From a virus (taxonomy: Duplodnaviria > Heunggongvirae > Uroviricota > Caudoviricetes): a DNA stretch of 64,000 nucleotides. The translations under genes were made by a program, and so were the position numbers. Under the pieces are notes generated by a model, which saw nothing but the letters and a program-made list of their open reading frames with translations, was not told the DNA's origin and searched no databases. Every line of letters begins with the position of its first letter. Position 1 is the stretch's first letter. Shown here piece by piece: positions 545-55,142 of the stretch. The stretch is taken from IMG/VR virus record IMGVR_UViG_3300005613_000005, positions 27,213 through 91,212 of that record. One strand, 5' to 3'.

Positions 545-554
545 CTAGATTCCT

Positions 555-1103
555 TTATGAAAGGTCGTCGTCGCCTGAACCTTTTTTATCGAAACTATCG
601 TCATCTTTGTAGATAGCATTAAAAGCAAACTGTTCTACAAGAACGCCACGTTTGTTGATAGCTCCACCTTTACGGGTAAAACGACAATCGTGAAGTTTCA
701 CAACAGCGTCTGAAACGTCAACCGCACCATTGTTGTCGTACTTTTGAAAAATTTCAAGATCAAAAGTTTGTGATGCTAAAAGATCACCAGGATTAACATG
801 TTGTTCACCGGAAGTGCCACTGGGAACTTTGAAATTCCAGTTTCCGATACCGTTGCCGTTAACGGCAGCACCGGCCATGCTTCCTTCTGCAGCTATTTTA
901 GTGTAACGGATAATGCTGAGCGTTCCGTCGACGAAGTATGCAACGGGTTCGTTGCTTACGACCTCATATCGCCCCATCGTTTCAATAGGTATTGTTGTAG
1001 TTGTAACATTGTAACTTACATCTTGTGCGTATGCAAGAGTTATTCCACCTAATTTAACTTTAGCATTTGCACCAGTAATAAAACCAGGTTTTAATCCAGC
1101 CAT
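555..1103 (-). CDS. tail tube protein (candidate)
   Basis: 182-aa ORF immediately downstream (same strand) of tail sheath gene, the canonical sheath->tube order of contractile-tail phages; no motif-level proof. Confidence 0.55.
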   Translation of the reverse strand: MAGLKPGFITGANAKVKLGGITLAYAQDVSYNVTTTTIPIETMGRYEVVSNEPVAYFVDGTLSIIRYTKIAAEGSMAGAAVNGNGIGNWNFKVPSGTSGEQHVNPGDLLASQTFDLEIFQKYDNNGAVDVSDAVVKLHDCRFTRKGGAINKRGVLVEQFAFNAIYKDDDSFDKKGSGDDDLS

Positions 1104-4987: not shown

Positions 4988-5671
4988 TTAAGGTACCCGA
5001 CTGTAATCGATGCCGGAATCATCATCGGGATTACTGCCGTCCTCTTCAGTCTCTTGTGAGTCAAAATCAACGTCGGTTTCAACTTCATCAATCTCTATAC
5101 CATCTTGAAATTCCAGAAGATTTTGAGTAGTACATCTAAATCGTATCCAACGTGTCCATATGTTCTCAGCCATGTACTGACTTTCTTTATTATAGTCGGT
5201 AGCACTCCACGTATGTAATCGTAAACCAAGTCTTTCAGCGACCAATTTTTCTTTGTAAAGTATATGAGATATCATATAATATAGCCAAAGTACCATGTCA
5301 CCGGTACGATCCCCGTGGATACCAATATCTACATTAACTGTAAAAACACCAACTGCCGAATCAAAACCATCTCCCATACCAAAAAAGTCACCCATAGCTG
5401 CTTTACCTTCATCCTCACTTTCACTAGCCAAATGAATGCTGATGCTAGGTACTTGTTTAGCATTAAAGCTCCATGCTTGAACAACCGGTATTTCGGTAGT
5501 AGTGAACCAACTCCATATATCATCAATATAAGATTGTCCAAAATCATCGCTGAGATCGTCTGCCGTATATATCATGAAAATATCGTTGAACGCGTCACGA
5601 TCTTCTCGCAAGTTATCTATACCTTGCTTTATGATTTTCTGGAGAATAGCCTCCGGTATGACAAATGCCAT
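4988..5671 (-). CDS. hypothetical tail/neck-region protein
   Basis: 227-aa ORF in structural operon immediately upstream of sheath; acidic C-terminus; start overlaps stop of 5671..6408. Confidence 0.5.
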   Translation of the reverse strand: MAFVIPEAILQKIIKQGIDNLREDRDAFNDIFMIYTADDLSDDFGQSYIDDIWSWFTTTEIPVVQAWSFNAKQVPSISIHLASESEDEGKAAMGDFFGMGDGFDSAVGVFTVNVDIGIHGDRTGDMVLWLYYMISHILYKEKLVAERLGLRLHTWSATDYNKESQYMAENIWTRWIRFRCTTQNLLEFQDGIEIDEVETDVDFDSQETEEDGSNPDDDSGIDYSRVP

Positions 5672-6408
5672 TATCTCAACTCCCTATACTGATCTATGAT
5701 ATCAAGCGTTGCATTTTCGATATCTTGATCTATGCGATCATTGATATCAATAAGCGCGCCTGTCATATCCATCTTCTTACCAGGGTGAACCCACTGTGTT
5801 TGAGGATTTTGTTTATCGGTCGCTGTTCTGAAGCGCACGGCACCGGTACCTTGTTCGGCAGTGTTTATCGCCTGTCGTCTACTCTCTAAAAATGATTTTG
5901 CTTTACTAAATCCTGTAATCTCCATAGTTCCTCTAAATGATCCTGTTCTCCTGGCATTATCCCTTTCTAACTTGCGCTGTTGAACTTTTTGTCTTCGTTC
6001 CTCGTTCGCTCGTGCTCTCATATCAAATATGTTAGTAGTTCCAGCAGATGTTTTTTCTTTTATCGGTATGTTCTGATATCGTGTACCATCTTTAGCTACT
6101 TTAGCGGTTTTCAATATCTTTGGCAGCATCGGAAACGGTGGTTCTGAAAAATCTGTTTTTCCTGATGACGTACCCAAACGGTATGAAGAAGCGTCTCGCA
6201 TAACTTGCAATTCTTCAACAAACTTGTCAGCACCTATTGCTTCACCGATTTGTGCTGCTTCTAGCATAGCATTGTCTAGTATCTCTTCAACAGCTGCGTT
6301 GATATCATTGCGTGCTAGTTCTATAACATAATCAATATCATTCCAGTCATATCCTTTCCAGCGCAAATCTTCTTTTAACCTATCAAGTTCAAATTCAACG
6401 TTAATCAT
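5671..6408 (-). CDS. hypothetical structural-module protein
   Basis: 245-aa ORF translationally coupled to neighbours. Confidence 0.5.
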   Translation of the reverse strand: MINVEFELDRLKEDLRWKGYDWNDIDYVIELARNDINAAVEEILDNAMLEAAQIGEAIGADKFVEELQVMRDASSYRLGTSSGKTDFSEPPFPMLPKILKTAKVAKDGTRYQNIPIKEKTSAGTTNIFDMRARANEERRQKVQQRKLERDNARRTGSFRGTMEITGFSKAKSFLESRRQAINTAEQGTGAVRFRTATDKQNPQTQWVHPGKKMDMTGALIDINDRIDQDIENATLDIIDQYRELR

Positions 6409-7957
6409 CTATATCAACTTCCCTTGTTTTTCTGATGACACGCGCTTTCATGTCATTGAGGAAGTTTTCTTGATCTAGATGATTCCAATCGTTGGCAAAA
6501 GTAATCCGTATTTTTCCACTAGGAGCGATCTCAATACTAGGTTTTGACAAATAACAGTAGTCGTTGTTCAACAGATCGCGTGATCTAGCAGGGTTTGCAG
6601 ATACAGCCTCAACAGAGACCGGAGCATTACTGAGTTCATCTACTTTCTGTTGAAGTTGTAGTAGCTTTTGTTCTATCTCGTCCAAGTCGTTGCCAGCATC
6701 TGCGTTTAGTTTATTGTGTTGATCAACTAAATGATGCATAGTATTTTCAAGTCGATCAAAGAGTTTCATTATGCGTTTTTCAACTTGCTGAAGATCAACT
6801 GCCATACCGTTTCGTATCTCTTCTCGTATATTCTCAACTTCCTGATATATGTTGGCGATGTTATGACGCTTGTGGTTGTCGATCAAGATGTTTAGACCGC
6901 CGTTTATCGCATCATCGCTCAAGTGTTCCTCACTTAATAATTCTAGGTCTGGTTCATCTTCCGGTAGATACCACTCGAACACGCTCATGAGTTCTGCTGT
7001 CAGTTGAGGAAGTGTTTTATTGGTAAACTGATGTATTACCTTGTGTCCGTCTTCAACACGACCAGAATACATATCGTTAACGTGCTTTCTTATAGCTATC
7101 ATGTAATGATCAAAATGCAGTTGACGAAACTCTTCGTCTTTCATACCTTTGACAGCGTTGTTTATTATACGAAAAGCACCATTGCCTACTAATCTCAAAG
7201 CTTCACCATGACTCACTTCAATGACACCTTCACCTTGACCCATAGTGGTTCGCTTGATGTTCTTCTCTAATTTTTCTTTAGTTAGCATGTACGAAAGACT
7301 TTTTTTGAAATGACAGAAAGGGCTGTCTAGATAAGCTTCTAGCGAAACGCGACAGCATTCACGTAATCTGTCATCATCTATTATCAAACTTGGTTCCATG
7401 AAACGTAAGTTTTTAACTTCTGATTTCTGAGGTTTCATCCTTCCTTTATATGAGTTGCAGAAAAACGATTTACAGTCGTTACCGTTATCTTGAAAACTGT
7501 TTATCTCATGTAGTTCATTAGCTACTAGATTAACCTCTTCTCTCATCTCGCGATGAGCGCCTTCTTCAAAAGTCTCGTCAAAGTTCACGTGTCCGCCAGG
7601 AAAAAGTAACTTGCCGTCGTTGACATCTTCGCCGCACAATATCTTACCGTTTTTATCCACTACTATTACTCCAGCACCTTTGCCTTTATAATATTGTTCA
7701 AACGCTTTTCTTAACTTAGTTTTCTTTTTCTTACGCTCTATCCTAGCTTCTTTTACTTTTTCTTTAGCCCGTGCATGATGGCCTTCTCCCCATGTTCCAC
7801 CAGTATTACTTCCAGATTGTTCCGGCGCATCTTTACCAGGTGACTTATATTTTCCTGCTATCGATTTAGGCGGCGTTCCTCTCGGATGCGAAAACGATTT
7901 GCCATGCAATATCGCCTGCATAAATCTGAATTGCTTTTTACTAACAGCTTTTGGCAT
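6401..7957 (-). CDS. Nudix hydrolase domain protein (518 aa) in structural module
   Basis: Near-perfect Nudix box GHVNFDETFEEGAHREMREEVNL (G-x5-E-x7-REUxEExNU; only the last Gly replaced by Asn); basic N-terminus; coiled-coil-like C-terminal region. Confidence 0.65.
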   Translation of the reverse strand: MPKAVSKKQFRFMQAILHGKSFSHPRGTPPKSIAGKYKSPGKDAPEQSGSNTGGTWGEGHHARAKEKVKEARIERKKKKTKLRKAFEQYYKGKGAGVIVVDKNGKILCGEDVNDGKLLFPGGHVNFDETFEEGAHREMREEVNLVANELHEINSFQDNGNDCKSFFCNSYKGRMKPQKSEVKNLRFMEPSLIIDDDRLRECCRVSLEAYLDSPFCHFKKSLSYMLTKEKLEKNIKRTTMGQGEGVIEVSHGEALRLVGNGAFRIINNAVKGMKDEEFRQLHFDHYMIAIRKHVNDMYSGRVEDGHKVIHQFTNKTLPQLTAELMSVFEWYLPEDEPDLELLSEEHLSDDAINGGLNILIDNHKRHNIANIYQEVENIREEIRNGMAVDLQQVEKRIMKLFDRLENTMHHLVDQHNKLNADAGNDLDEIEQKLLQLQQKVDELSNAPVSVEAVSANPARSRDLLNNDYCYLSKPSIEIAPSGKIRITFANDWNHLDQENFLNDMKARVIRKTREVDIDD

Positions 7958-35514: not shown

Positions 35515-35753
35515 TGTTTAAGATCGGTGATTTATTAAAGATCAAGATGGACCAGTTTGAGTATCAGTACGGCGGGTGTGCCAACACGACGGTTTACAAA
35601 ACGTTAAAAAAAACGGCTGAGCAGTACAGATATAAAGTTTTGTCCAAAACAGCCGGTTCGTATGAGTTAGAACGCTCCGATGGTCAAGTTGATACTAAGT
35701 CAATACAAGAAGTTCATCAACTTTTAGAGCTAGTTACTTCTGATGACGTTTAG
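35505..35753 (+). CDS. hypothetical protein
   Basis: 82 aa. Confidence 0.45.
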   Translation: MVLMFKIGDLLKIKMDQFEYQYGGCANTTVYKTLKKTAEQYRYKVLSKTAGSYELERSDGQVDTKSIQEVHQLLELVTSDDV

Positions 35754-35910
35754 CAAACTTGTTTTTCTTGGCTTGTTCGTGGTATTTGGAGTGAAGCATG
35801 GTTAGATCAAATGTCGTATACCCACAAAAATTACATTTTATCCACCAGATAAGCTCGGGGTGGTCCTGTAGGATAGCCACGTGGCATACGGGACAGATCT
35901 TTTGCTTCAT
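35734..35910 (-). CDS. zinc-ribbon protein (tentative)
   Basis: 58-aa reverse ORF MKQKICPVCH...CNFCG, convergent with previous gene. Confidence 0.3.
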   Translation of the reverse strand: MKQKICPVCHVAILQDHPELIWWIKCNFCGYTTFDLTMLHSKYHEQAKKNKFAKRHQK

Positions 35911-36712: not shown

Positions 36713-37063
36713 TTGGGACGTAGTAAGTACACAGATAAAGAGATAGAATTGTTAGATAAATTAAAACATGAAAATAGAAAACTCAAAAGAGCATTGAAAG
36801 CCGCGCGCAAGATGCTCGACAGGTATCAGGTAGCTGAAAAAAAAGGTCTGATTGAAGAAGACATAATAGTACCCAGTAAAAAACGTCAGAAAGAGAAAGA
36901 ACTTCGTGACAAATGGCAGTGCTACGAGTGCGATGGTGGCATTCTAGAGCTGATAATCGTTGGCAACCGTTATTTCAGGAAATGCAATGTGTGTGGCAAA
37001 CACACGCGTTCTCAGATATGGGACGAATCAGTAGAAGGGATTCGCGCTAAGTCTCGCGGATAG
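36713..37063 (+). CDS. coiled-coil / zinc-finger protein
   Basis: CYECDGG...CNVCG. Confidence 0.5.
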   Translation: MGRSKYTDKEIELLDKLKHENRKLKRALKAARKMLDRYQVAEKKGLIEEDIIVPSKKRQKEKELRDKWQCYECDGGILELIIVGNRYFRKCNVCGKHTRSQIWDESVEGIRAKSRG

Positions 37064-37336: not shown

Positions 37337-39976
37337 ATGTCAGATAAAATGAGTAGTTTTGCAACCAATATCATGCAGATGAAATATTCACATACGAAAG
37401 CTGATGATACTAAAGAAACATGGGAAGATATAGCACGACGAGTCACGAAAAACGTGATGGCTGAAGTGCCGATCGACAGAAAATTAAAGAAAAGGATAGA
37501 ACAGGCAATATGCGATCGAAAATTTATCCCTGCTGGACGGTATCTGTATGCTTGCGGTCGCCAATATCATCAGGTGCAAAACTGTCTGCTTCTAAGAGCA
37601 GAAGACAGTCGAGAAGGTTGGGCAGAGTTACTGCATAAAGCAGCTATGGCACTGATGACCGGTGCGGGAATAGGCATAGACTATTCTGGCATCAGAGCTG
37701 AGGGCAAAAAAGTTCGCAAGACTGGGGGTTTCGCGACGGGACCTTTGGCGTTGATGCAGATGATGAACGAGTGCGGTAGAGGGATAATGCAGGGAGGTTC
37801 ACGACGTTCTGCCATATGGGCTGGATTATCCTGGCAACATCCTGACATACACAAGTTCATAGACGCGAAAAACTGGCCGTCCGAGATACGTGAGCTGAAG
37901 AGCAAGAATTTCAATTTTCCGGCCACGTTGGACGGCACTAATATATCGGTCATACTAGACGATGAATTTTTCAAAGCGTACAACAACGATCGTCATAGTA
38001 AACATGCCCACGCGCATTCAGTGTATTGGGCTACCATCAAGCGTATGCTAAAGACCGGCGAACCTGGATTTTCAGTTAACTTAGGACAGAACTCCAAAGA
38101 AACACTTAGAAATGCTCCAATTCATAGTAATACACATGTACTTACTAAAAATGGTTATAAACAAGTGATAGATATTGTTAATAAGCCAATAACAATTTGG
38201 ACAGGTAAACAATGGGCTCGAGATGTAGTATTTCATAAAACAATTGAAAATGCAGAGTTGATAAAAGTGAAATTTAGCAATAATCGAGAGATTGTATGTG
38301 AACCTAATCATGAATTTCTAGTTGAAAAATATATTGGAAAAGGCAAAAAATATCGTAAATTAGAATCAATTGATCGAGTTCGTGCCATAGATTTACAAGC
38401 TCAAGATATATTACATGTCAGCATGCCTACATATTATGAAAGTTCATTTGATGAAAATGGATATACTTTTGGGTATATATATGGCGATGGATGTTTTCAT
38501 AAAATATTACCTAGAGCTGAAATAACATTTTGTACTACTGAGTCACAAAAATGTTCTAAATATATAAATACTAAATGGCTAACAAAATCAGACGTTTATA
38601 TGGAAAATAGAGGATATCTACAAGCAAATACAAAAAATTTAGATATACTTAAAAATAGATGTAAATCTATGTTTCCCATAGATATATATGCTAAAGACAT
38701 CAATTTTATATGTTCTTTTATAGCTGGCTTATTTGATGCAGACGGTAATTATGTTCAAAAACGACAGTTATTAAGATTAGGTAGTATACACTTTAATTTT
38801 TTAAAAGGAACTCAGCGACTTTTAGATCAAATAGGAATAAGTAGTTCTATTATTAAAGGCAGTACCGGTAATTTTAAAAATAGTTCTAGCAAATCATGGT
38901 TTTTAATTATACATAGTAACTCTATAAAACATTTTCAACAATTAATACCTACAAAAAGAATAAATGTATGTGCTGATAATTATAATCCTTACAGACAAAC
39001 ATTGATTAAAGTTAAATCGATTGGTTTATTGGACGAACACAGTGACGTATATTGCTGTGATACTAAAGTACCAGAACATAGTTTTATGGCTGAAGGAATA
39101 ATAATATCGAACTGCACTGAAGTGTGCAGCGAAGACGATTCTGATATATGCAACCTAGGTTCTATCAATATGGCAGCGATAGACACGATAGAAGAGTTCA
39201 AGAAGGTCGTAGAACTAGCCACTGCGTTCTTGTTGGCAGGTACTCTATACTCCGATGTTCCTTATCCTAAGGTAGATCAGATCCGATCTAAGAATCGTAG
39301 GTTAGGACTAGGAGTGATGGGCGTTCACGAATGGTTGTTGAAACGAGATAAACCATACGCTCCTGACGAAGAACTAGGTAAATGGTTGGAGATATACGCT
39401 ACGTCAACCGAGATAGCAGCGAGGTATGCCGAACAATGGGACATATCTAAGCCTGTTAAAACTCGAGCTATCGCACCTACAGGAACTATTGGTATACTAG
39501 CAGAAACTACTACCGGTATAGAACCAATCTTTGCTGTTGCCTATAAGCGCAGGTATCTCAAACACCATACATGGCATTACGAGTACGTCGTAGATCCATG
39601 CGCGGCTCGACTAATTGAATCAGGAATTCCAGAATATAAAATCGAGGACGCCTTTAAACTATCGGAAGACATTGAGAAACGCGTCCAGTTTCAAGCGTGG
39701 GTGCAGCAGTACGTAGACCATGGCATATCTTCTACTATAAACTTACCGGCGTGGAAATCCCAACACAATAACGATTACAAGATATTACCGTTCGGTGAGA
39801 TGTTGTTGAAATACTTGCCCAAACTACGCGGCATAACGGTTTTTCCAGACGGCAGTCGCAGCGGTCAACCGTTGACTCCTGTCAAATATAGCACAGCGGT
39901 AAAATATACTGGAGAAGTAGTACAAGAACAAGCCGATATATGCTTAATAACTAAAGGTGGATCATGTGGCGAATAG
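37337..39976 (+). CDS. nrdJ: ribonucleotide reductase, class II-like (NrdJ-type), interrupted by an intein
   Basis: N-terminus ETWEDIARRV resembles monomeric class II RNR; no ATP cone; active-site segment ..NLGQN/CTEVCSEDDSDICNLGSINM parallels SNLCLEI...VCNLASL of RNRs; ~340-aa AT-rich insert carries LAGLIDADG (FIAGLFDADGNYV). Confidence 0.7.
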   Translation: MSDKMSSFATNIMQMKYSHTKADDTKETWEDIARRVTKNVMAEVPIDRKLKKRIEQAICDRKFIPAGRYLYACGRQYHQVQNCLLLRAEDSREGWAELLHKAAMALMTGAGIGIDYSGIRAEGKKVRKTGGFATGPLALMQMMNECGRGIMQGGSRRSAIWAGLSWQHPDIHKFIDAKNWPSEIRELKSKNFNFPATLDGTNISVILDDEFFKAYNNDRHSKHAHAHSVYWATIKRMLKTGEPGFSVNLGQNSKETLRNAPIHSNTHVLTKNGYKQVIDIVNKPITIWTGKQWARDVVFHKTIENAELIKVKFSNNREIVCEPNHEFLVEKYIGKGKKYRKLESIDRVRAIDLQAQDILHVSMPTYYESSFDENGYTFGYIYGDGCFHKILPRAEITFCTTESQKCSKYINTKWLTKSDVYMENRGYLQANTKNLDILKNRCKSMFPIDIYAKDINFICSFIAGLFDADGNYVQKRQLLRLGSIHFNFLKGTQRLLDQIGISSSIIKGSTGNFKNSSSKSWFLIIHSNSIKHFQQLIPTKRINVCADNYNPYRQTLIKVKSIGLLDEHSDVYCCDTKVPEHSFMAEGIIISNCTEVCSEDDSDICNLGSINMAAIDTIEEFKKVVELATAFLLAGTLYSDVPYPKVDQIRSKNRRLGLGVMGVHEWLLKRDKPYAPDEELGKWLEIYATSTEIAARYAEQWDISKPVKTRAIAPTGTIGILAETTTGIEPIFAVAYKRRYLKHHTWHYEYVVDPCAARLIESGIPEYKIEDAFKLSEDIEKRVQFQAWVQQYVDHGISSTINLPAWKSQHNNDYKILPFGEMLLKYLPKLRGITVFPDGSRSGQPLTPVKYSTAVKYTGEVVQEQADICLITKGGSCGE
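38093..39112 (+). other. intein with LAGLIDADG homing endonuclease domain inside RNR gene (approximate boundaries)
   Basis: insert begins at Ser after ..LGQN and ends ..IISN immediately before catalytic-type Cys (CTEV); markedly lower GC than flanking extein. Confidence 0.6.
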
Positions 39977-39977
39977 A

Positions 39978-40287
39978 ATTTGCAATAAATGTAAATGTAA
40001 TATAATATATGCTAAAAATTTATGTAAACAATTATAAAACTGGATCAGCGGTTAAAGATCTAGGATGTGATATTAAAGAATTTAAAAAATATATAGAATC
40101 TAAATGGTCACAAGGAATGTCCTGGGATAATTATGGATACAATGGTTGGCATATCGACCATATTATTCCTTTAGTTAATTTTGATTTAACTGATAAAAAG
40201 CAATTAAAAGAGGCTTGTCATTATGGCAATTTACAACCTTTGTGGAAAAATGATAATTTAGAGAAAAGTGGTAATTATGAAAATTAA
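39978..40287 (+). pseudogene. decayed HNH homing endonuclease (frameshifted N-terminal Zn-finger remnant + intact C-terminal HNH block)
   Basis: 39978..40040 encodes ICNKCKCNIIYAKNLCKQL* without start codon in a different frame from 40009..40287 (GSAVKDLGC..WHIDHIIPL..NLQPLW). Confidence 0.5.
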
Positions 40288-40798
40288 AGTACATAAAGAG
40301 GCTGGCTATGAAGAGGCTTTAATGGGACTTTCTTTTAATAAGAATCAACCGTTAGAAAACATGCACGGAGTAGCTGATAAATTAGTTAATAAAGACGGCG
40401 GACATAATAAATTTCTTGAAGCCATTATTATTTGGGTAGAAGTTGAAGCGCCAAGATATATGTGGTCACAAATGGATACCTATAGACTTTCTACCAAACA
40501 AAGCCAAAGCACTATGCATACCATACTAAAACGTCCTCTCACCAAAGATGACTTTAAAGACAGACATATAAGTTGGTGGACCCTCAGACGACTCAACAAA
40601 CTGATTCGGAATCAAGATTTTCATAAATTAAAAAAAGAGCTACCTGAAGGCTTCATGCAGCGCAGGATGTGGTGTATGTCCTATAAAACACTGCGAAACA
40701 TCTACAAACAGCGTAAAAATCATAGATTAAGAGAATGGCATATGTTTTTAAACGCCGTGCTCGACCAAATTCAACATCCAGATTTTATCGTAAGGTAA
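40277..40798 (+). CDS. ThyX-fold (Thy1 family) protein with variant active-site motif
   Basis: GGHNKFLEAIIIWVEVEAPRYMWSQMDTYRLSTKQSQS aligns with ThyX SGHESVLEH..RHRx7S region but RHR replaced by TYR; start trimmed to ATG 40277. Confidence 0.5.
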   Translation: MKIKVHKEAGYEEALMGLSFNKNQPLENMHGVADKLVNKDGGHNKFLEAIIIWVEVEAPRYMWSQMDTYRLSTKQSQSTMHTILKRPLTKDDFKDRHISWWTLRRLNKLIRNQDFHKLKKELPEGFMQRRMWCMSYKTLRNIYKQRKNHRLREWHMFLNAVLDQIQHPDFIVR

Positions 40799-40807
40799 AA
40801 TAATGTA

Positions 40808-41437
40808 ATGAAATGTCAAGAATGTAGTAAAGAATTTGAGTCAAAAGCTCATAACGCGAAATTTTGTTGTAAACGCTGTAGTAATAAACATTGGAAATCC
40901 TGTAATAAAGATAAAATGCGGGAGTACAATTTGAACAGTAAAGAATATAAGAAACGATGGTATATTAAAAATAAAGAGAGAATTAAGAAAAAGAAAGAAA
41001 ATAATAAACAACATCTTAAAGTCTATAACAAACATTGGCAAGAACAAAACAAAGACAAAGTACATCAATACCGTATAAAAAATAAAGAAAAATATCGAAA
41101 AAGACGCAAAGAACGTTATCAAGATGATGTTCAATATAAAATTAAGAAAAATTTAAGAACTCGTTTAAATATAGCTTTAAAAAACAATCATAAATCAGGT
41201 TCTGCTGTTAAAGATCTAGGCTGTTCTATTGAAGATTTTAAATGTTACTTAGAATCTAAGTTTGATGCCCCAATGTCCTGGGACAACTATGGACAGTGGC
41301 ACATAGATCATGTTCAACCTTTAGCTAGTTTTGATCTAACAGACAGAGAACAACTAAAAAAAGCTTGTCATTATAGTAATTTACAACCATTATGGGCTAA
41401 GGATAATCTTCAAAAAAGTAATAAAATTACGAATTAG
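40808..41437 (+). CDS. HNH homing endonuclease
   Basis: paralog of 27908 gene (CQECS/CCKRC, GSAVKDLGC, WHIDHVQPL, NLQPLW). Confidence 0.7.
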   Translation: MKCQECSKEFESKAHNAKFCCKRCSNKHWKSCNKDKMREYNLNSKEYKKRWYIKNKERIKKKKENNKQHLKVYNKHWQEQNKDKVHQYRIKNKEKYRKRRKERYQDDVQYKIKKNLRTRLNIALKNNHKSGSAVKDLGCSIEDFKCYLESKFDAPMSWDNYGQWHIDHVQPLASFDLTDREQLKKACHYSNLQPLWAKDNLQKSNKITN

Positions 41438-41480: not shown

Positions 41481-42182
41481 ATGGCTGAAAAGAACAATTT
41501 GAACGATAATGGAGATGAAACTTGGGTATACAAATTCGATGAAGAAGCAGCTCACAAATTCCGAGTTGACGTTAAGAACAAATCAAAGAGGGATCCCAAC
41601 GCGCCTATCATAGTCTACATCGACTCATACGGTGGAAACGTTGATGGCATGGCTAAGATGATAGATACCATGGACGAGATCCCCAATCCTATCATAACAG
41701 TATGCATGGGAAAATCTATGTCTGCTGGGGCTATCCTGTTGTCGCACGGTGACATGCGTTTCTGTTCAAAGAACAGCAGGATAATGATCCATGAGCTTTC
41801 AGCAGGGGCTTTTGGGAACGTTCGCGACATCGCCAACGATACCGATGAGTTGATGAGGATGAACAGGCATTGGATAGGTTTGCTGGCCAAGAACTGCTGC
41901 ATAAGCGGTGGTTACAACGGTATACGCAAAGTCATAAAAGACAACGACAACCAGAGCATCTATCTGGACGCTGTTATGGCAAAACAGTTCGGCATCGTCG
42001 ATTGCATCGGTGTTCCGACCACCAACGCCGCGGTCTTGTACGAGGTCCTGACGTTAAAAGAAAAAGAAAAGAAACACATGCGCATGGAAGACTTCGAGAA
42101 ACTCCAGAAGAAGATAGCAAAACAGGGTGCTAAGAAAAAAGCACGCAAGAAAAAAGCTACGAAAAAGAAAACTAAAAAATGA
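41481..42182 (+). CDS. ClpP-like serine protease (S14 family-like) with Lys-rich tail
   Basis: IVYIDSYGGNV...CMGKSMSAGAILLSHGD.RF...RIMIHEL matches ClpP core motifs. Confidence 0.6.
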   Translation: MAEKNNLNDNGDETWVYKFDEEAAHKFRVDVKNKSKRDPNAPIIVYIDSYGGNVDGMAKMIDTMDEIPNPIITVCMGKSMSAGAILLSHGDMRFCSKNSRIMIHELSAGAFGNVRDIANDTDELMRMNRHWIGLLAKNCCISGGYNGIRKVIKDNDNQSIYLDAVMAKQFGIVDCIGVPTTNAAVLYEVLTLKEKEKKHMRMEDFEKLQKKIAKQGAKKKARKKKATKKKTKK

Positions 42183-42516: not shown

Positions 42517-42672
42517 ATGAGTCTGATAATGGTTAGATTTTTAGTAATTATTGGGATGATTGTATTTTTCACTGTACTAGGAACCTCTATGGGATATGCT
42601 ATAGGGTATGAAAAAGCATATATCAAAGCTAAAACTAGTGAGCGAAGAAAAAAAGACCGTCGAAAAACCTAA
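42517..42672 (+). CDS. small membrane protein
   Basis: 51 aa with TM segment. Confidence 0.35.
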   Translation: MSLIMVRFLVIIGMIVFFTVLGTSMGYAIGYEKAYIKAKTSERRKKDRRKT

Positions 42673-42685
42673 AGAAGGAGAAAAC

Positions 42686-43540
42686 ATGAAATTATTTTTA
42701 TTATTGTGTATGCTGCTCGTGGGTACCAGCGCATTCGCCAAAAATGACAAGAAGCTCGACGTTGTTCTAAAAGATGATAACTTTTTTGCGGTTACTTCAG
42801 TCTTTACAGAACGTCTTTTAGAAGACTTCAATCGTAAAGTTATGACTTACGACGGCGATGAGCTCATCGTGTACATCGATAGCCCAGGAGGCAGCGTATT
42901 TTCTGTAGCGCGCATGGTATCTATAATGAGGTCATCTGAGGTTAAATTTACTTGCGTAGCTCGTTTCGCCGCTTCTGCCGCGTTCACGATGTTTCAAGCC
43001 TGCACCAACAGGTATATCTTGTACGATGGTATCATAATGCAGCACAATGCTTCTGGTATTTTCTGGGATGAATTTCCCAGGATCGAAACATTATATACCG
43101 CGATCAAAGATATAGTTACCGATATGGAAACACAGACAGCAAAAAGGATGAAGATGGAGTTCAAGGATTTCAAGGTGGCCATCAACAACAACCTGTGGTT
43201 GTCTAGGATCACCGCTCCAAAATACAACGCGATCGACGCCGTGATAAACACTATAAAATGCGAAGAGTCACTGATCAAGAAAACCATCACTAAAGCAGAA
43301 AGAAAATGCGGTTGGTTCAGCTGTTCGACTACCTATAAAAAATATTCAGCGTGCCCGCTGTTAACCCTTCCTCTTCCCGAACCTCCTAAAAAAGATAAAC
43401 CTGCTGATGATGGATGGTACGACGATGAATTCTACGATGGACATCCTTTATATCTTCCGTTTGATGAAAAAATCAACACGAACATCAAGAACTTCATGCA
43501 CATAGCCCCTTATACTATTAAAGATAAGATCATGAAATAA
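42686..43540 (+). CDS. secreted ClpP/S49-like serine protease paralog
   Basis: AAGGAG SD; signal peptide MKLFLLLCMLLVGTSAFA; LIVYIDSPGGSV...ARFAASAAFTMF...IIMQHN. Confidence 0.55.
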   Translation: MKLFLLLCMLLVGTSAFAKNDKKLDVVLKDDNFFAVTSVFTERLLEDFNRKVMTYDGDELIVYIDSPGGSVFSVARMVSIMRSSEVKFTCVARFAASAAFTMFQACTNRYILYDGIIMQHNASGIFWDEFPRIETLYTAIKDIVTDMETQTAKRMKMEFKDFKVAINNNLWLSRITAPKYNAIDAVINTIKCEESLIKKTITKAERKCGWFSCSTTYKKYSACPLLTLPLPEPPKKDKPADDGWYDDEFYDGHPLYLPFDEKINTNIKNFMHIAPYTIKDKIMK

Positions 43541-53826: not shown

Positions 53827-54266
53827 AAAAGAAAGCTATCATAGTTGACCTGGACGGAACCTTGTGCAACACCAAGCATCGCAACCATATACTGGAAACA
53901 AATCCCGGCAACTGGGACAAGTTCAACGAGGGTATCCCGTTTGATATCCCCAACCCGTGGTGCATGGAAATAGTAGAGAACTTCGCGAAAGAAGGGTATC
54001 ACATCCTTTTCGTCACCGGCAGAAACTCCAACACACACGACGCTACGGAGCAATGGTTAAGAACTTACCTGAACCCGACCGTCCAATGGGACCTGCACAT
54101 GAGACCCGACCACAACTACATCGCAGATACCATAATTAAAACAAACATCTATTTCACTAAGATACTGCCATTCTACGACGTGGTGTTCTGCGTCGACGAC
54201 AAACGTTCCATATGCGATCTGTGGAGAAGTTTAGGACTAGTAGCCCTTCACTGCGAAGATTACTGA
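53823..54266 (+). CDS. HAD-superfamily phosphatase (polynucleotide 3'-phosphatase / nucleotidase-like)
   Basis: motif I IIVDLDGTL (DxDGT); FVTGR; C-terminal CVDDK. Confidence 0.6.
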   Translation: MKKKAIIVDLDGTLCNTKHRNHILETNPGNWDKFNEGIPFDIPNPWCMEIVENFAKEGYHILFVTGRNSNTHDATEQWLRTYLNPTVQWDLHMRPDHNYIADTIIKTNIYFTKILPFYDVVFCVDDKRSICDLWRSLGLVALHCEDY

Positions 54267-55042
54267 TTCTCGGGGATTATATCTTCGCCCGACTCGTCGA
54301 TGATTATGTCGGGATCAAACTCTTCTTTCTTAGGTACTGTAACATCTATCTTGACTATCCCTTTACGGTTCGTACGCTTATATAAATCTTTGATCAGTTT
54401 CTTGAGTTCTTTTTCGTCGGGCGCATTCGACATCTTAGCTATCCTTGATCTTCGTAAGTTACCCCGCTTCTTGGGTTGAATTATGTTGTCGGCGATTCCC
54501 AACGACACTGCTTCACTCGCGGTTATGTAGACGTCACGCTGCAAGATGTCGTTCCAGAAACTTTCCGGCATATGTGAGTTCTCTGCGAATAGTTTGTCAA
54601 GCTTGCTTTGCAGGTCCTTAGTTGATTTAGCTTCGATCTGTACGTCGGTATGCTTACCCTCTATCTCGTCCAACCCGTCGTGCAACATTATCTCAGTGTT
54701 GGGATATAAGTTCCTTTCATCACATATCGCCATAAGCCAGGTCGCCGCTGATGCTATCTGTCCGCCGCCGAAAAACTTAACCTGACAAGGGCAAGACAGT
54801 ATGACGTCGACCAGACGCAGCATCGACGTGGCACTACCACCGCACGACTGTATATGTAACTCTATAGGTTTCTTAGGATTGTCTGATACTAATAGGTGGA
54901 TAGCTCGAACAGCTTTCTCAACGGTGTTCCAACTGAACTCTTCGTGTCCCTCATCGTTCAACACGCCAAAATATATGCGCCGCATCTTACGATCAAAGTT
55001 TCTCTCAAAAATCTCCTCGACACGGCTGTTTTTATCAGACAT
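54260..55042 (-). CDS. ClpP-like serine protease, third paralog
   Basis: start trimmed to M27 (MSDKNSRV) which has AGGAG + TGGTATAAT upstream; IELHIQSCGGSATSMLRLVDVI...TEIMLHDG. Confidence 0.55.
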   Translation of the reverse strand: MSDKNSRVEEIFERNFDRKMRRIYFGVLNDEGHEEFSWNTVEKAVRAIHLLVSDNPKKPIELHIQSCGGSATSMLRLVDVILSCPCQVKFFGGGQIASAATWLMAICDERNLYPNTEIMLHDGLDEIEGKHTDVQIEAKSTKDLQSKLDKLFAENSHMPESFWNDILQRDVYITASEAVSLGIADNIIQPKKRGNLRRSRIAKMSNAPDEKELKKLIKDLYKRTNRKGIVKIDVTVPKKEEFDPDIIIDESGEDIIPENQ

Positions 55043-55061
55043 CTTCACTCCTATTGATACT

Positions 55062-55070
55062 ATTATACCA
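55062..55070 (-). promoter_or_regulatory. extended -10 promoter (TGGTATAAT on minus strand)
   Basis: rc of 55062..55070 followed by AGGAG and ATG 55042. Confidence 0.4.
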
Positions 55071-55142
55071 CCGTGAACGTAGTATGCTATCGTGCGAGTT
55101 TCAATAACCGATTCGATCAATATTCAGAATTGAGGTGCATGT

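Follow-up and report, generated by a model that had tools for sequence, protein, structure and literature searches.

The ribonucleotide reductase (RNR) gene of this tailed phage is interrupted at its active site, and the locus raises the question of what the interrupting segment is, exactly where it begins and ends, and by which chemistry it could be removed from the protein. Our analysis covered the whole 64,000-nucleotide stretch of viral DNA, referred to here as the window, in which a continuous 879-aa open reading frame (ORF) encodes the RNR precursor (Table 1). The initial annotation, made from the sequence alone, had described this frame as a class II-like RNR without an ATP cone, carrying a LAGLIDADG intein at the N-x-C-x-E segment, and that description holds. 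A protein identical to the precursor, P0006, is encoded on a 157,173-bp ENA metagenome contig.

Table 1. Features of the interrupted RNR gene and its downstream neighbors (window coordinates; the caret marks a splice junction)
Feature	Position	Strand	Details	Basis
RNR precursor ORF (N-extein, intein, C-extein)	37337..39976	+	879 aa plus stop	ORF list, translation
N-extein	37337..38116	+	aa 1-260, end ..SKETLRNA	alignment to intein-free homologues of 547 aa, unbroken up to ..LRNA
Intein	38117..39112	+	aa 261-592 (332 aa), Pro261 to Asn592	missing from intein-free homologues
Block A	38117..38155	+	PIHSNTHVLTKNG; Pro1 (no N-terminal nucleophile)	Pro1 in 47/47 unique family members
Block B	38279..38323	+	NNREIVCEPNHEFLV; Glu322 (B:7), His325 (B:10), Phe327 (B:12)	family profile versus 6bs8
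LAGLIDADG homing-endonuclease domain	38417..38995	+	~aa 361-553	Pfam LAGLIDADG_3, PI-PfuI alignment, Foldseek
LAGLIDADG motif 1	38462-38497	+	YTFGYIYGDGCF, aa 376	
LAGLIDADG motif 2	38708-38752	+	CSFIAGLFDADGNYV	
Block F	39044..39094	+	DVYCCDTKVPEHSFMAE; Cys573 (F:4, codon 39053-39055), His581 (F:13)	47/47 conservation, 6bs8 alignment
Block G plus +1	39095..39115	+	GIIISN^C; Ile590 (G:5), Ser591 (G:6), Asn592 (G:7), Cys593 (+1)	
C-extein	39113..39976	+	aa 593-879 (CTEVCSEDDSDICNLGSINM... to ...GGSCGE) plus stop	contiguous with intein-free homologues
Short HNH / endonuclease VII-like ORF	40009..40287	+	92 aa, GC 27%	32 nt downstream of RNR stop
Full-length paralogue of the short HNH-like ORF	40808..41437	+	209 aa, AT-rich, GC 28%	

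Both segments flanking the insert match RNRs and the insert itself is unrelated to them, as had been claimed. The N-extein (45.3% GC) aligns to residues 62-299 of T. maritima NrdJ, the best PDB relative of the RNR, and the C-extein (44.3-44.4% GC) aligns to residues 322-640, with Cys593 opposite the catalytic Cys322; extein residues invariant across RNRs are retained. For the spliced extein, the top family is TIGR02504 NrdJ_Z at 253 bits (cut-off 400) versus 158 bits for NrdE_NrdA. The B12 insertion domain PF21995 scores 25.9 bits on the RNR against a cut-off of 27, and the 879-aa protein gave no ATP-cone match. Of the 11 further window ORFs with 250 aa or more, ten have no match to the small-subunit (NrdB) model Ribonuc_red_sm, and for the remaining one (42608-43540) a precomputed match on the source contig is to a Clp protease, which is consistent with the earlier remark that no nrdB lies nearby. 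Judged from these alignments and domain matches, the host gene is a class II-like phage RNR without an ATP cone and with a putative dependence on cobalamin. A megablast of the gene against phage records returned no match; its relatives are detectable at the protein level only, the best extein match in phages being 61% (Tunturiibacter phage).

The spliced sequence is matched by thousands of homologues, the best of them 69-73% identical and many exactly 547 aa long. In the best intein-free homologues, [ET]LRNA stands directly before C-x-E (for example, ...ETLRNA^CTEV...), and [ET..]LRNA occupies the site in 107 of the 109 checked, all 500-600 aa long. Position 3 of the intein N-terminal model TIGR01445 falls opposite aa 263, so position 1 of the intein is Pro261; Ala260 as residue 1 is ruled out by the intein-free alleles. 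At its other end, the insert closes with ..IISN followed at once by Cys593, just as first noted. Since the N-extein ends ..LRNA260, splicing restores N-A-C-T-E, and the intein-free site is reconstructed as CTTAGAAATGCT^TGCACTGAAGTG. Read from these alignments, the insertion is immediately before the catalytic Cys, within the N-x-C-x-E segment.

The initial annotation had instead begun the insert at Ser253, the Ser after ..SVNLGQN, an arrangement that would make it a standard class 1 intein (SKETLRN...) with Ser1 as the nucleophile. The drop in GC does start nearby (change-point ~nt 38068). SKETLRNA (aa 253-260) is nevertheless conserved extein sequence, found in intein-free homologues right before C-x-E, and excising aa 253-592 would remove the Asn of N-x-C-x-E; the placement of position 1 by the N-terminal HMM and the presence of RNA^P in 47/47 relatives likewise oppose this boundary, which we regard as wrong almost beyond doubt. 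The error falls where the mechanism is most affected, for the intein has Pro1 and an invariant Cys in block F and lacks a penultimate His.

With the boundaries placed at Pro261 and Asn592, the insert shows every one of the intein blocks A, B, F, and G, and the extein halves are contiguous, so the intein assignment stands. TIGR01445 scores 25.8 bits on the intein alone, above its cut-off of 24.5; Pfam Intein_splicing reaches 31.9 bits, under its cut-off of 35.8. An AlphaFold model of the intein (pLDDT 84.4, pTM 0.86) has as its top Foldseek matches the endonuclease-bearing inteins TliVMA, PI-PfuI, and PI-SceI (E 3e-17 to 1e-12) and also matches I-DmoI; the splicing-domain family profile matches mini-intein structures as well. 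LAGLIDADG_3 (PF14528) scores 42.5 bits versus a cut-off of 22.5. The sequence FIAGLFDADGNYV, picked out at the outset, is present at aa 461, and a further LAGLIDADG-type motif lies at aa 376. Both motifs, YGDG (Asp384) and FDADG (Asp469), align to PI-PfuI (PDB 1dq3), and their acidic residues are kept in 17/17 and 16/17 relatives, respectively. PI-PfuI, the intein of the archaeal class II RNR of Pyrococcus furiosus, likewise bears an endonuclease and is both the best PDB sequence match to the endonuclease domain (E 2.8e-6) and a top fold match, at just 16% identity over the structural alignment. Going by sequence and modeled fold, the insert combines a HINT splicing domain and, nested in it, a LAGLIDADG homing endonuclease, for which cleavage activity is predicted. 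On DNA, this enzyme would be expected to cleave the catalytic-site codons of intein-free RNR alleles, into which the intein would then be copied.

An exhaustive HMM search together with an IMG/VR scan identified a family of 47 unique relatives that share this RNR insertion site. Every one is metagenomic and most lie on viral contigs; a word-index homologue search gave just 5. Residues T6, V8, T10, and G13 of block A are invariant in the 17 protein-derived members that were aligned. The residue roles established for the class 3 intein Msm DnaBi1 (PDB 6bs8) include Asp62, His65, and Trp67 and the catalytic, branch-forming Cys118 (PMC6195587). The family profile places D/E322, H325, and F327 opposite the first three of these, with Asp or Glu at B:7 in 45/47 members and Phe at B:12 in 46/47. 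Cys573 is invariant across all 47 members, mini-inteins included, and lies opposite Cys118, the family consensus VYCCDVxVPEH aligning with VRCVEVDNPEH without gaps. In HMMER alignments to class 1 inteins, the residue opposite the F:4 Asp is Asp575 instead of Cys573, a two-residue shift in register, and it is the class 3 alignment, spacing, and conservation that support assigning Cys573 to F:4. In block G, Asn is universal at G:7 (47/47), Ser is found at G:6 in 42/47 and His in none, and G:5 is Ile, Val, or Leu in 47/47 and never Thr. The C-terminal Asn592 followed by Cys593 is what an intein requires at this end. Two other cysteines were considered and rejected: Cys574 as the nucleophile, a position that varies between Cys and Ala with Ala in about one-third of the family, and the near-invariant Cys321 of block B as an essential residue, which is Ala or Ser in 15/47.

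Because residue 1 is Pro261 and not the Cys, Ser, or Thr of class 1 inteins, the usual first acyl shift is impossible and this is not a standard class 1 intein; the Pro start points to splicing probably through an internal cysteine, the rare class 3 route. Across 1,701 inteins, class 3 has been defined operationally by the lack of Cys at position 1 and the presence of Cys at F:4 (PMC7891396), and the intein described here has this combination, with no N-terminal nucleophile at all. It departs from the class 3 signature triplet WCT at two of its three residues, at B:12, where Phe327 stands in place of Trp, and at G:5, where Ile590 stands in place of Thr, positions at which 6.1% and 4.6% of known class 3 inteins deviate, respectively (PMC7891396). 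The Ser or Thr that is usual, though not obligatory, at +1 in class 3 is also absent, with Cys593 instead. Taken together, the residues suggest that this is probably a functional class-3-type intein belonging to a non-WCT subfamily. In the first step of the proposed mechanism, Cys573 of block F, aided by His325 and Glu322 of block B, would attack the Ala260-Pro261 bond to form a branched thioester. The N-extein would then be handed to Cys593, and cyclization of Asn592, which in the absence of a penultimate His is probably assisted by His581 of block F, would free the intein. A final S-to-N shift would yield an active 547-aa enzyme with N-A-C-T-E restored.

The Cys at +1 makes a class 2 route chemically possible as well. 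In a KlbA-like mechanism, Cys593 would attack the Ala260-Pro261 amide directly, with Cys573 in an assisting or structural role, replacing the block F Asp. Cys+1 and a non-nucleophilic residue 1 are both class 2 requirements (PMC2807308), the class 3 Trp and Thr are missing, and the splicing domain is not especially near canonical class 3 structures: its profile matches the class 1 intein PabCDC21-1 (E 2.7e-6) better than class 3 6bs8, to which the similarity is weak (E 3.6e-4). Known class 2 inteins, however, combine Ala1 and Cys+1 with Asp at F:4, and of these features only Cys+1 is found here, where Pro1 and a Cys take the other two places. The retention of Cys573 in 47/47 members, including the mini-inteins, and the match of both Cys573 and the acidic B:7 residue to class 3 counterparts also speak against a class 2 assignment, and we consider it unlikely.

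Comparison with characterized class 3 inteins further supports attack by the block F Cys. The MP-Be DnaB intein, the class 3 prototype, has a Pro1 (PMC2807308) exactly as here, and the DxxH of block B in Msm DnaBi1 resembles the acidic-x-x-His of our family. A C-terminal Asn and phage association are common to class 3 inteins and this one, and a LAGLIDADG endonuclease, present here too, occurs in 82.5% of class 3 inteins. In contrast to MP-Be DnaB and Msm DnaBi1, the present intein has Phe rather than Trp at B:12, Ile/Val rather than Thr at G:5, Ser rather than His at G:6, and Cys rather than Ser/Thr at +1, and its host is the catalytic site of an RNR, not the ATPase of a helicase or terminase. 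The class 3 intein of Bvi IcmO also has Cys+1, which is unable to replace the F:4 Cys (PMC5222942). With Cys as the C-extein nucleophile in both Bvi IcmO and the intein here, both branched intermediates would be thioesters. Bvi IcmO differs in being a plasmid-borne mini-intein that keeps the WCT triplet, from which Trp and Thr are absent here, and its Cys+1 does not double as an RNR catalytic Cys. A precedent for the loss of canonical residues is the AceL NrdHF class 3 intein, which splices fast even though the Trp and the two assisting His are missing (PMC7891396). Its host is an RNR gene on a phage-like metagenome contig, probably that of a phage; the intein has MCT in place of WCT, lacks the penultimate His, and is experimentally active. 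Unlike the contiguous intein described here, which bears a LAGLIDADG domain and has the F:13 His, AceL NrdHF occurs naturally as a split intein; its first residue is Ala, it has the G:5 Thr and no F:13 His, and its host is a beta-type chain, NrdHF, not the catalytic alpha chain.

Outside the Pro1 family, the nearest relatives start with Cys. Metagenomic Cys1 inteins of the same RNR clade (P0083, P0095, and P0120) share the identical insertion point, ..RNA^...^CTE, and related inteins are annotated in Vibrio phage ICP1 (nrdA) and in Staphylococcus phages (RNR). Among cultured phages, the intein is matched best, at no more than 27%, by inteins that again start with Cys. The Cys1 inteins are ~26-31% identical to the intein here, with a clearly homologous block A (CVSGDTELLT versus PIHSNTHVLT), a block F Cys, a LAGLIDADG domain, and no penultimate His. 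They differ in having Cys1, Thr at B:7, mostly Thr at G:5, and often Gln instead of Asn at the end. All of these same-site inteins have block A and the block F Cys in common and lack the penultimate His; peculiar to the Pro1 clade are Pro instead of Cys at residue 1 and Asp/Glu instead of Thr at B:7.

Among homologous inteins at this RNR site, the two positions co-vary, Pro1 occurring with an acidic B:7 and Cys1 with Thr at B:7. A neighbor-joining tree recovered the Pro1 clade as monophyletic in 100/100 replicates. The top-scoring relatives outside the family combine a block F Cys with the lack of a penultimate His; a clade predefined by those two features was recovered in 0/100, and we therefore do not claim that the Pro1 inteins are nested within it. 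Tentatively, the Pro1 clade might be a separate class-3-mechanism lineage without the WCT Trp and Thr, derived from Cys1 inteins at the same RNR site by changes of Cys1 to Pro and of B:7 Thr to Asp/Glu, a scenario to which we give less than even weight. Literature searches, with most subscription journals outside their scope, returned no class 3 intein at an RNR catalytic site, and the Pro1 family is apparently undescribed.

In its basics the finding is ordinary, inteins being common in RNRs and class 3 having been recognized since 2010. What is new is a coherent metagenomic family of 47 members in which the two features demanded by class 3 chemistry, the lack of a residue-1 nucleophile and a block F Cys, are joined by the loss of two of the three WCT residues, by a missing penultimate His, and by a Cys+1 that is obligatory and serves as the enzyme's own catalytic Cys. 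If the class 3 mechanism is correct, the sequence definition of class 3 is widened, WCT-based searches would miss the family, and a second natural group with Cys+1 is added. The natural mini-inteins of ~140 aa (138-142 aa) would then be candidate ligation tools working with Cys+1. If the Pro1 lineage arose from same-site Cys1 inteins, the site keeps natural intermediates of a shift from a class 1-like to a class 3 arrangement, and the clade would supply a new class 3 scaffold. Inteins of class 3 have been proposed to be solely convergent, from a separate protease lineage (PMC7664689), and an origin of Pro1 from Cys1 in situ would argue against convergence as the only source. The Pro1 and same-site Cys1 inteins offer a concrete system for the evolution of class 3, an open question in the literature (PMC7664689).

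The reported AT-richness of the insert was borne out, its GC content being 27.8% against 45.3% and 44.3% in the exteins, with GC3 of 11-12% versus 41-45%. The intein is the lowest-GC 996-bp stretch of the window (mean 41.9%, SD 4.8). At other family loci, the intein and its flanks usually differ in GC by only a few points, and by 8 points at the most. The deficit here suggests that the intein was recently acquired by this phage.

Such a compositionally foreign and possibly very recent insertion could also be a non-splicing remnant within a recently disabled ORF, with either the intein or the RNR gene as a whole no longer active; the absence of canonical residues (the penultimate His, B:7 Thr, and a residue-1 nucleophile) would fit this explanation. 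Those same "defects," however, are fixed in 47 diverged relatives (32-47% identical) that conserve the splice residues, and none of the 37 metagenome loci checked has an internal stop. They are shared by the five endonuclease-free mini-inteins of the family (138-162 aa), which keep every splice residue and are selectable for splicing only. The intein frame is open for 332 codons at 28% GC, for which the chance is ~1e-14, with 15-53 stops in the other frames, and both LAGLIDADG acidic residues and the RNR-invariant extein residues are kept. We therefore judge an inactive remnant very improbable and retain the view of a functional intein.

The initial annotation had also reported a decayed HNH endonuclease immediately 3' of the gene. 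A short HNH-like ORF does lie just downstream of the RNR stop codon, with weak matches to Pfam HNH (E 0.016) and to the endonuclease VII family phrog_1035 (E 1e-7), and it shares 66% identity with the last 86 aa of the 209-aa ORF that follows. Its motif is intact, and the supposed decay was not borne out; judged from this alignment, it is a short paralogue of the longer gene. The short ORF is a neighboring mobile-element-like gene, separate from the intein.

The 879-residue ORF matches ribonucleotide reductases (RNRs) at both ends and intein and LAGLIDADG models in its middle, bearing out the initial annotation of a LAGLIDADG intein inside an RNR. The motifs that it cited are in place, with FIAGLFDADG at residue 461 and ..IISN before CTEVCSEDDSDICNLGSINM. 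The closest solved structure to the RNR ends is Thermotoga maritima NrdJ; query residues 17-246 align with chain residues 62-299 and residues 593-848 with 322-640, setting Cys593 opposite the catalytic Cys322. With the spliced query (residues 1-260 joined to 593-879; 547 aa), thousands of RNRs were recovered; the top ones are 69-73% identical and many are exactly 547 aa long. With the insert removed, the extein halves are contiguous with RNRs: intein-free homologues run unbroken through ..SKETLRNA/CTEVTS.. (slashes mark splice junctions), and ..[ET..]LRNA directly precedes C-x-E in 107 of 109 homologues checked (500-600 aa long). The left boundary had been drawn at the Ser after ..SVNLGQN. This is wrong, since SKETLRNA is extein in the intein-free homologues, and a Ser1 intein is thereby excluded. 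Position 3 of the intein N-terminal model TIGR01445, which scores above its cut-off on the intein alone, aligns to residue 263, making Pro261 intein position 1. Because the N terminus had been misplaced, the unusual features of the intein were overlooked. Joining Ala260 to Cys593 by splicing would recreate the catalytic N-x-C-x-E motif as N259-A-C593-T-E, and we are all but certain that this is a functional intein with boundaries at Pro261 and Asn592.

The best model for the spliced extein is TIGR02504 (NrdJ_Z), at 253 bits versus 158 for NrdE/NrdA, below every curated cut-off. As first annotated, no ATP cone was detected on the RNR protein and no NrdB among the scanned other ORFs of at least 250 aa in the window; ORF 42608-43540, outside that scan, has a precomputed Clp-protease match. 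"Class II-like" appears a reasonable description of the enzyme. Among cultured phages, the nearest RNRs belong to Tunturiibacter phage Tunturi_3 (61%) and to Streptomyces phages (~56-58%). The window itself is part of a 157-kb metagenome contig bearing phage-type genes.

The insert is a HINT splicing domain with a LAGLIDADG endonuclease nested inside it. An AlphaFold model of residues 246-607, built from a 9-sequence alignment, has a mean pLDDT of 84.4 and a pTM of 0.86, and its best Foldseek matches in the PDB are endonuclease-bearing inteins, TliVMA (7qsu; E 3e-17) followed by PI-PfuI and PI-SceI, with I-DmoI matching the inner domain. Both LAGLIDADG motifs align to PI-PfuI, including the acidic residues, and relatives retain these (Asp384 in 17/17, Asp469 in 16/17).

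Features of the RNR locus
Feature	Position	Strand	Details
RNR precursor ORF	37337..39976	+	879 aa, uninterrupted
Insert (intein)	nt 38117-39112	+	Pro261-Asn592, 332 aa
HINT splicing domain	~aa 261-360 + 554-592		
Nested LAGLIDADG endonuclease	~aa 361-553		
Short HNH / endonuclease VII-like ORF	40009-40287		92 aa; 32 nt downstream of RNR; GC 27-28%
ThyX-like ORF	40268-40798		176 aa; Pfam Thy1 E 1.5e-4, 22 bits, below cut-off 24.8
HNH / endonuclease VII-like ORF	40808-41437		209 aa; GC 27-28%

Intein residue 1 is Pro; without Cys1 or Ser1, the usual opening N-to-S/O acyl shift cannot take place. The penultimate residue is Ser rather than His. Pro1 is shared with MP-Be DnaB, the prototype class 3 intein, whose block F Cys is indispensable and gives rise to the initial branched intermediate (PMC2807308). 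Block F of the window intein reads DVYCCDTKVPEH. A splicing-domain profile of 17 members of the Pro1 family (inteins at the same RNR site), with the endonuclease deleted, matches the class 3 intein Msm DnaBi1 (PDB 6bs8; E 3.6e-4). In this alignment, D/E322-x-x-H325-x-F327 pairs with Asp62-x-x-His65-x-Trp67 and the invariant Cys573 with Cys118, and block F is gapless (family consensus VYCCDVxVPEH versus VRCVEVDNPEH). Cys118 is the initiating nucleophile of Msm DnaBi1, and its block B DxxH, replacing TxxH, has been proposed to hold the scissile bond in place (PMC6195587). Judged by its residues, the window intein qualifies under the operational definition behind 1,701 class 3 inteins, namely no Cys at position 1 and Cys at position F:4 of block F (PMC7891396).

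We therefore consider a class 3 splicing route probable. Cys573 would attack the Ala260-Pro261 bond, the N-extein would transfer to Cys593, Asn592 would cyclise, probably with help from His581 because there is no penultimate His, and an S-to-N shift would restore the peptide bond. Against this reading, two of the three WCT (Trp-Cys-Thr) signature residues are missing, Phe327 replacing Trp and Ile590 replacing Thr; the profile also finds a better match in the class 1 intein PabCDC21-1 (E 2.7e-6) than in 6bs8, and in alignments to class 1 inteins the block F register shifts, placing Asp575 on F:4. In addition, the +1 residue (the first of the C-extein) is Cys, whereas Ser or Thr is usual in class 3 inteins. 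The main rival is a class 2 route in which Cys593 attacks directly, which we judge unlikely. Bvi IcmO offers a class 3 precedent for Cys+1, and there this residue is unable to replace the F:4 Cys (PMC5222942). For the missing Trp and assisting His, the precedent is AceL NrdHF, which is without Trp and both assisting His residues yet splices within minutes.

A word-index search found only five relatives of the intein, an exhaustive HMM search of 1.84 billion representatives ~20 full-length close relatives, an IMG/VR scan 36 further loci, and GTDB one more (L042); 47 unique inteins were left after duplicates were removed. All 47 are inserted at ..RNA/P...N/C[TC]E and have Pro at A:1, Cys at F:4, Asn at G:7 and Ile, Val or Leu, never Thr, at G:5. 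Phe occupies B:12 in 46, Asp or Glu B:7 in 45, and Ser, never His, G:6 in 42; His at B:10 and F:13 is invariant in the HMM alignment of the 20 members tabulated. Five mini-inteins of 138-162 aa have lost the endonuclease and kept every tabulated splice residue. Such retention would be predicted only of a splicing domain that is functional in its present form, and on this evidence the family is under selection. A dead remnant is thus very improbable, given also that internal stops number zero in the 37 metagenome loci checked. The natural mini-inteins lie in IMG/VR loci L035-L040, at positions 1501 to ~1920-1986, with Pro1, the block F Cys and Ser-Asn/Cys kept.

Clusters were looked up for 10 members, and every one of these traces to JGI, ENA or Logan metagenomes rather than to NCBI or UniRef. 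The only relatives in records of cultured phages are at most 27% identical and start with Cys, such as the inteins in RNR genes of Staphylococcus phages and in the Vibrio phage ICP1 nrdA, which is annotated as "intein-containing". As far as the databases searched show, this is a class-3-type, non-WCT family with Pro1, a block F Cys, Ser-Asn and Cys+1, confined to uncultured-phage RNR genes; we found no description of it in the literature searchable here.

L042 (JBFIDQ010000001.1, a 42-kb contig of a "Chlamydiales bacterium" MAG) is the sole match in 185,579 species-representative genomes and may be phage sequence binned into a bacterial MAG, because its splice motifs are nearly identical to those of the viral contigs L012 and L013. 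The closest relative from the word-index search, at 5001-6674 of metagenome locus L004 (the contig of P0001), lacks the N-terminal 150 aa of the protein, and its C-extein turns into unrelated sequence after ..SDVPHEEV, as if frameshifted, perhaps through an error in assembly. Some Pro1-intein RNRs, namely P0126, P0129, P0132 and P0133 (1169-1184 aa), are long enough for a second intein; the other intein of P0132 has Cys1, and its class 3 signature positions are occupied by Trp, Cys and Thr (..VNN/CFSGDT...ITSN/CVL).

A second intein occupies the identical ..LRNA/.../CTE.. site in three homologues of the same RNR clade (P0083, P0095 and P0120; 862-865 aa). It starts with Cys1 (CVSGDTE(L/I)LT) and ends in Gln rather than Asn (..TGQ/C or ..TEQ/C); block F has a Cys and G:5 is Thr. 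In block A and the endonuclease it is clearly homologous to the Pro1 intein. Among the best 150 HMM matches, many inteins that interrupt class I and II RNRs at the catalytic site (..NP/C.../CGE, ..NL/C.../C.E) share one set of residues: position 1 is Cys, B:7 is Thr, F:4 is Cys, G:5 is mostly Thr, G:6 is Gly, Ser or Ala, and G:7 is Gln or Asn. In a third group F:4 is the canonical Asp and the intein ends in His-Asn. Across these groups, Pro1 and an acidic B:7 thus vary together, as do the block F Cys and loss of the penultimate His. By neighbour joining, the Pro1 clade was monophyletic in 100/100 bootstraps, and a block F Cys clade that might enclose it was recovered in 0/100. If demonstrated, a class 3 mechanism with an evolutionary link to same-site Cys1 inteins would be of greater interest.

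The AT-richness first noted for the insert is real and extreme. Its GC content is 27.8% versus 45.3% and 44.3% for the coding DNA on either side (11-12% versus 41-45% at third positions), the lowest of any 996-bp stretch in the window (mean 41.9%, sd 4.8). At this composition a 332-codon open frame has a chance of ~1e-14, and the other five frames hold 15-53 stops each. In other Pro1-family loci, intein and flank GC usually differ by only a few points and at most by 8, so the 17-point deficit of this copy suggests that the intein came in recently from an AT-rich donor.

Immediately 3' of the RNR gene, the initial annotation had placed a decayed HNH endonuclease. An HNH-like ORF is indeed present; it is a short paralogue of the 209-aa ORF, corresponding to its C-terminal nuclease core (86 aa, 66% identity), and its decay is conjectural. 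With the intein, the two HNH-like ORFs make three low-GC endonuclease-type insertions in 3.4 kb. The ThyX-like ORF between them strongly matches phrog_6721 (unknown function), is much shorter than typical ThyX and shares 20 nt with the end of the short HNH-like ORF. A 14-kb stretch holds three separate ORFs of the ClpP family, resembling head-maturation proteases (41481-42182, 42608-43540 and 54260-55120 (-)), a multiplicity unusual for a phage; two of them adjoin, both with precomputed CLP_protease matches on the source contig. Just upstream of the RNR are small ORFs with paired CxxC motifs (zinc-ribbon-like), at 36713-37063 (+) and 35734-35910 (-), the latter on the strand opposite to all its neighbours.
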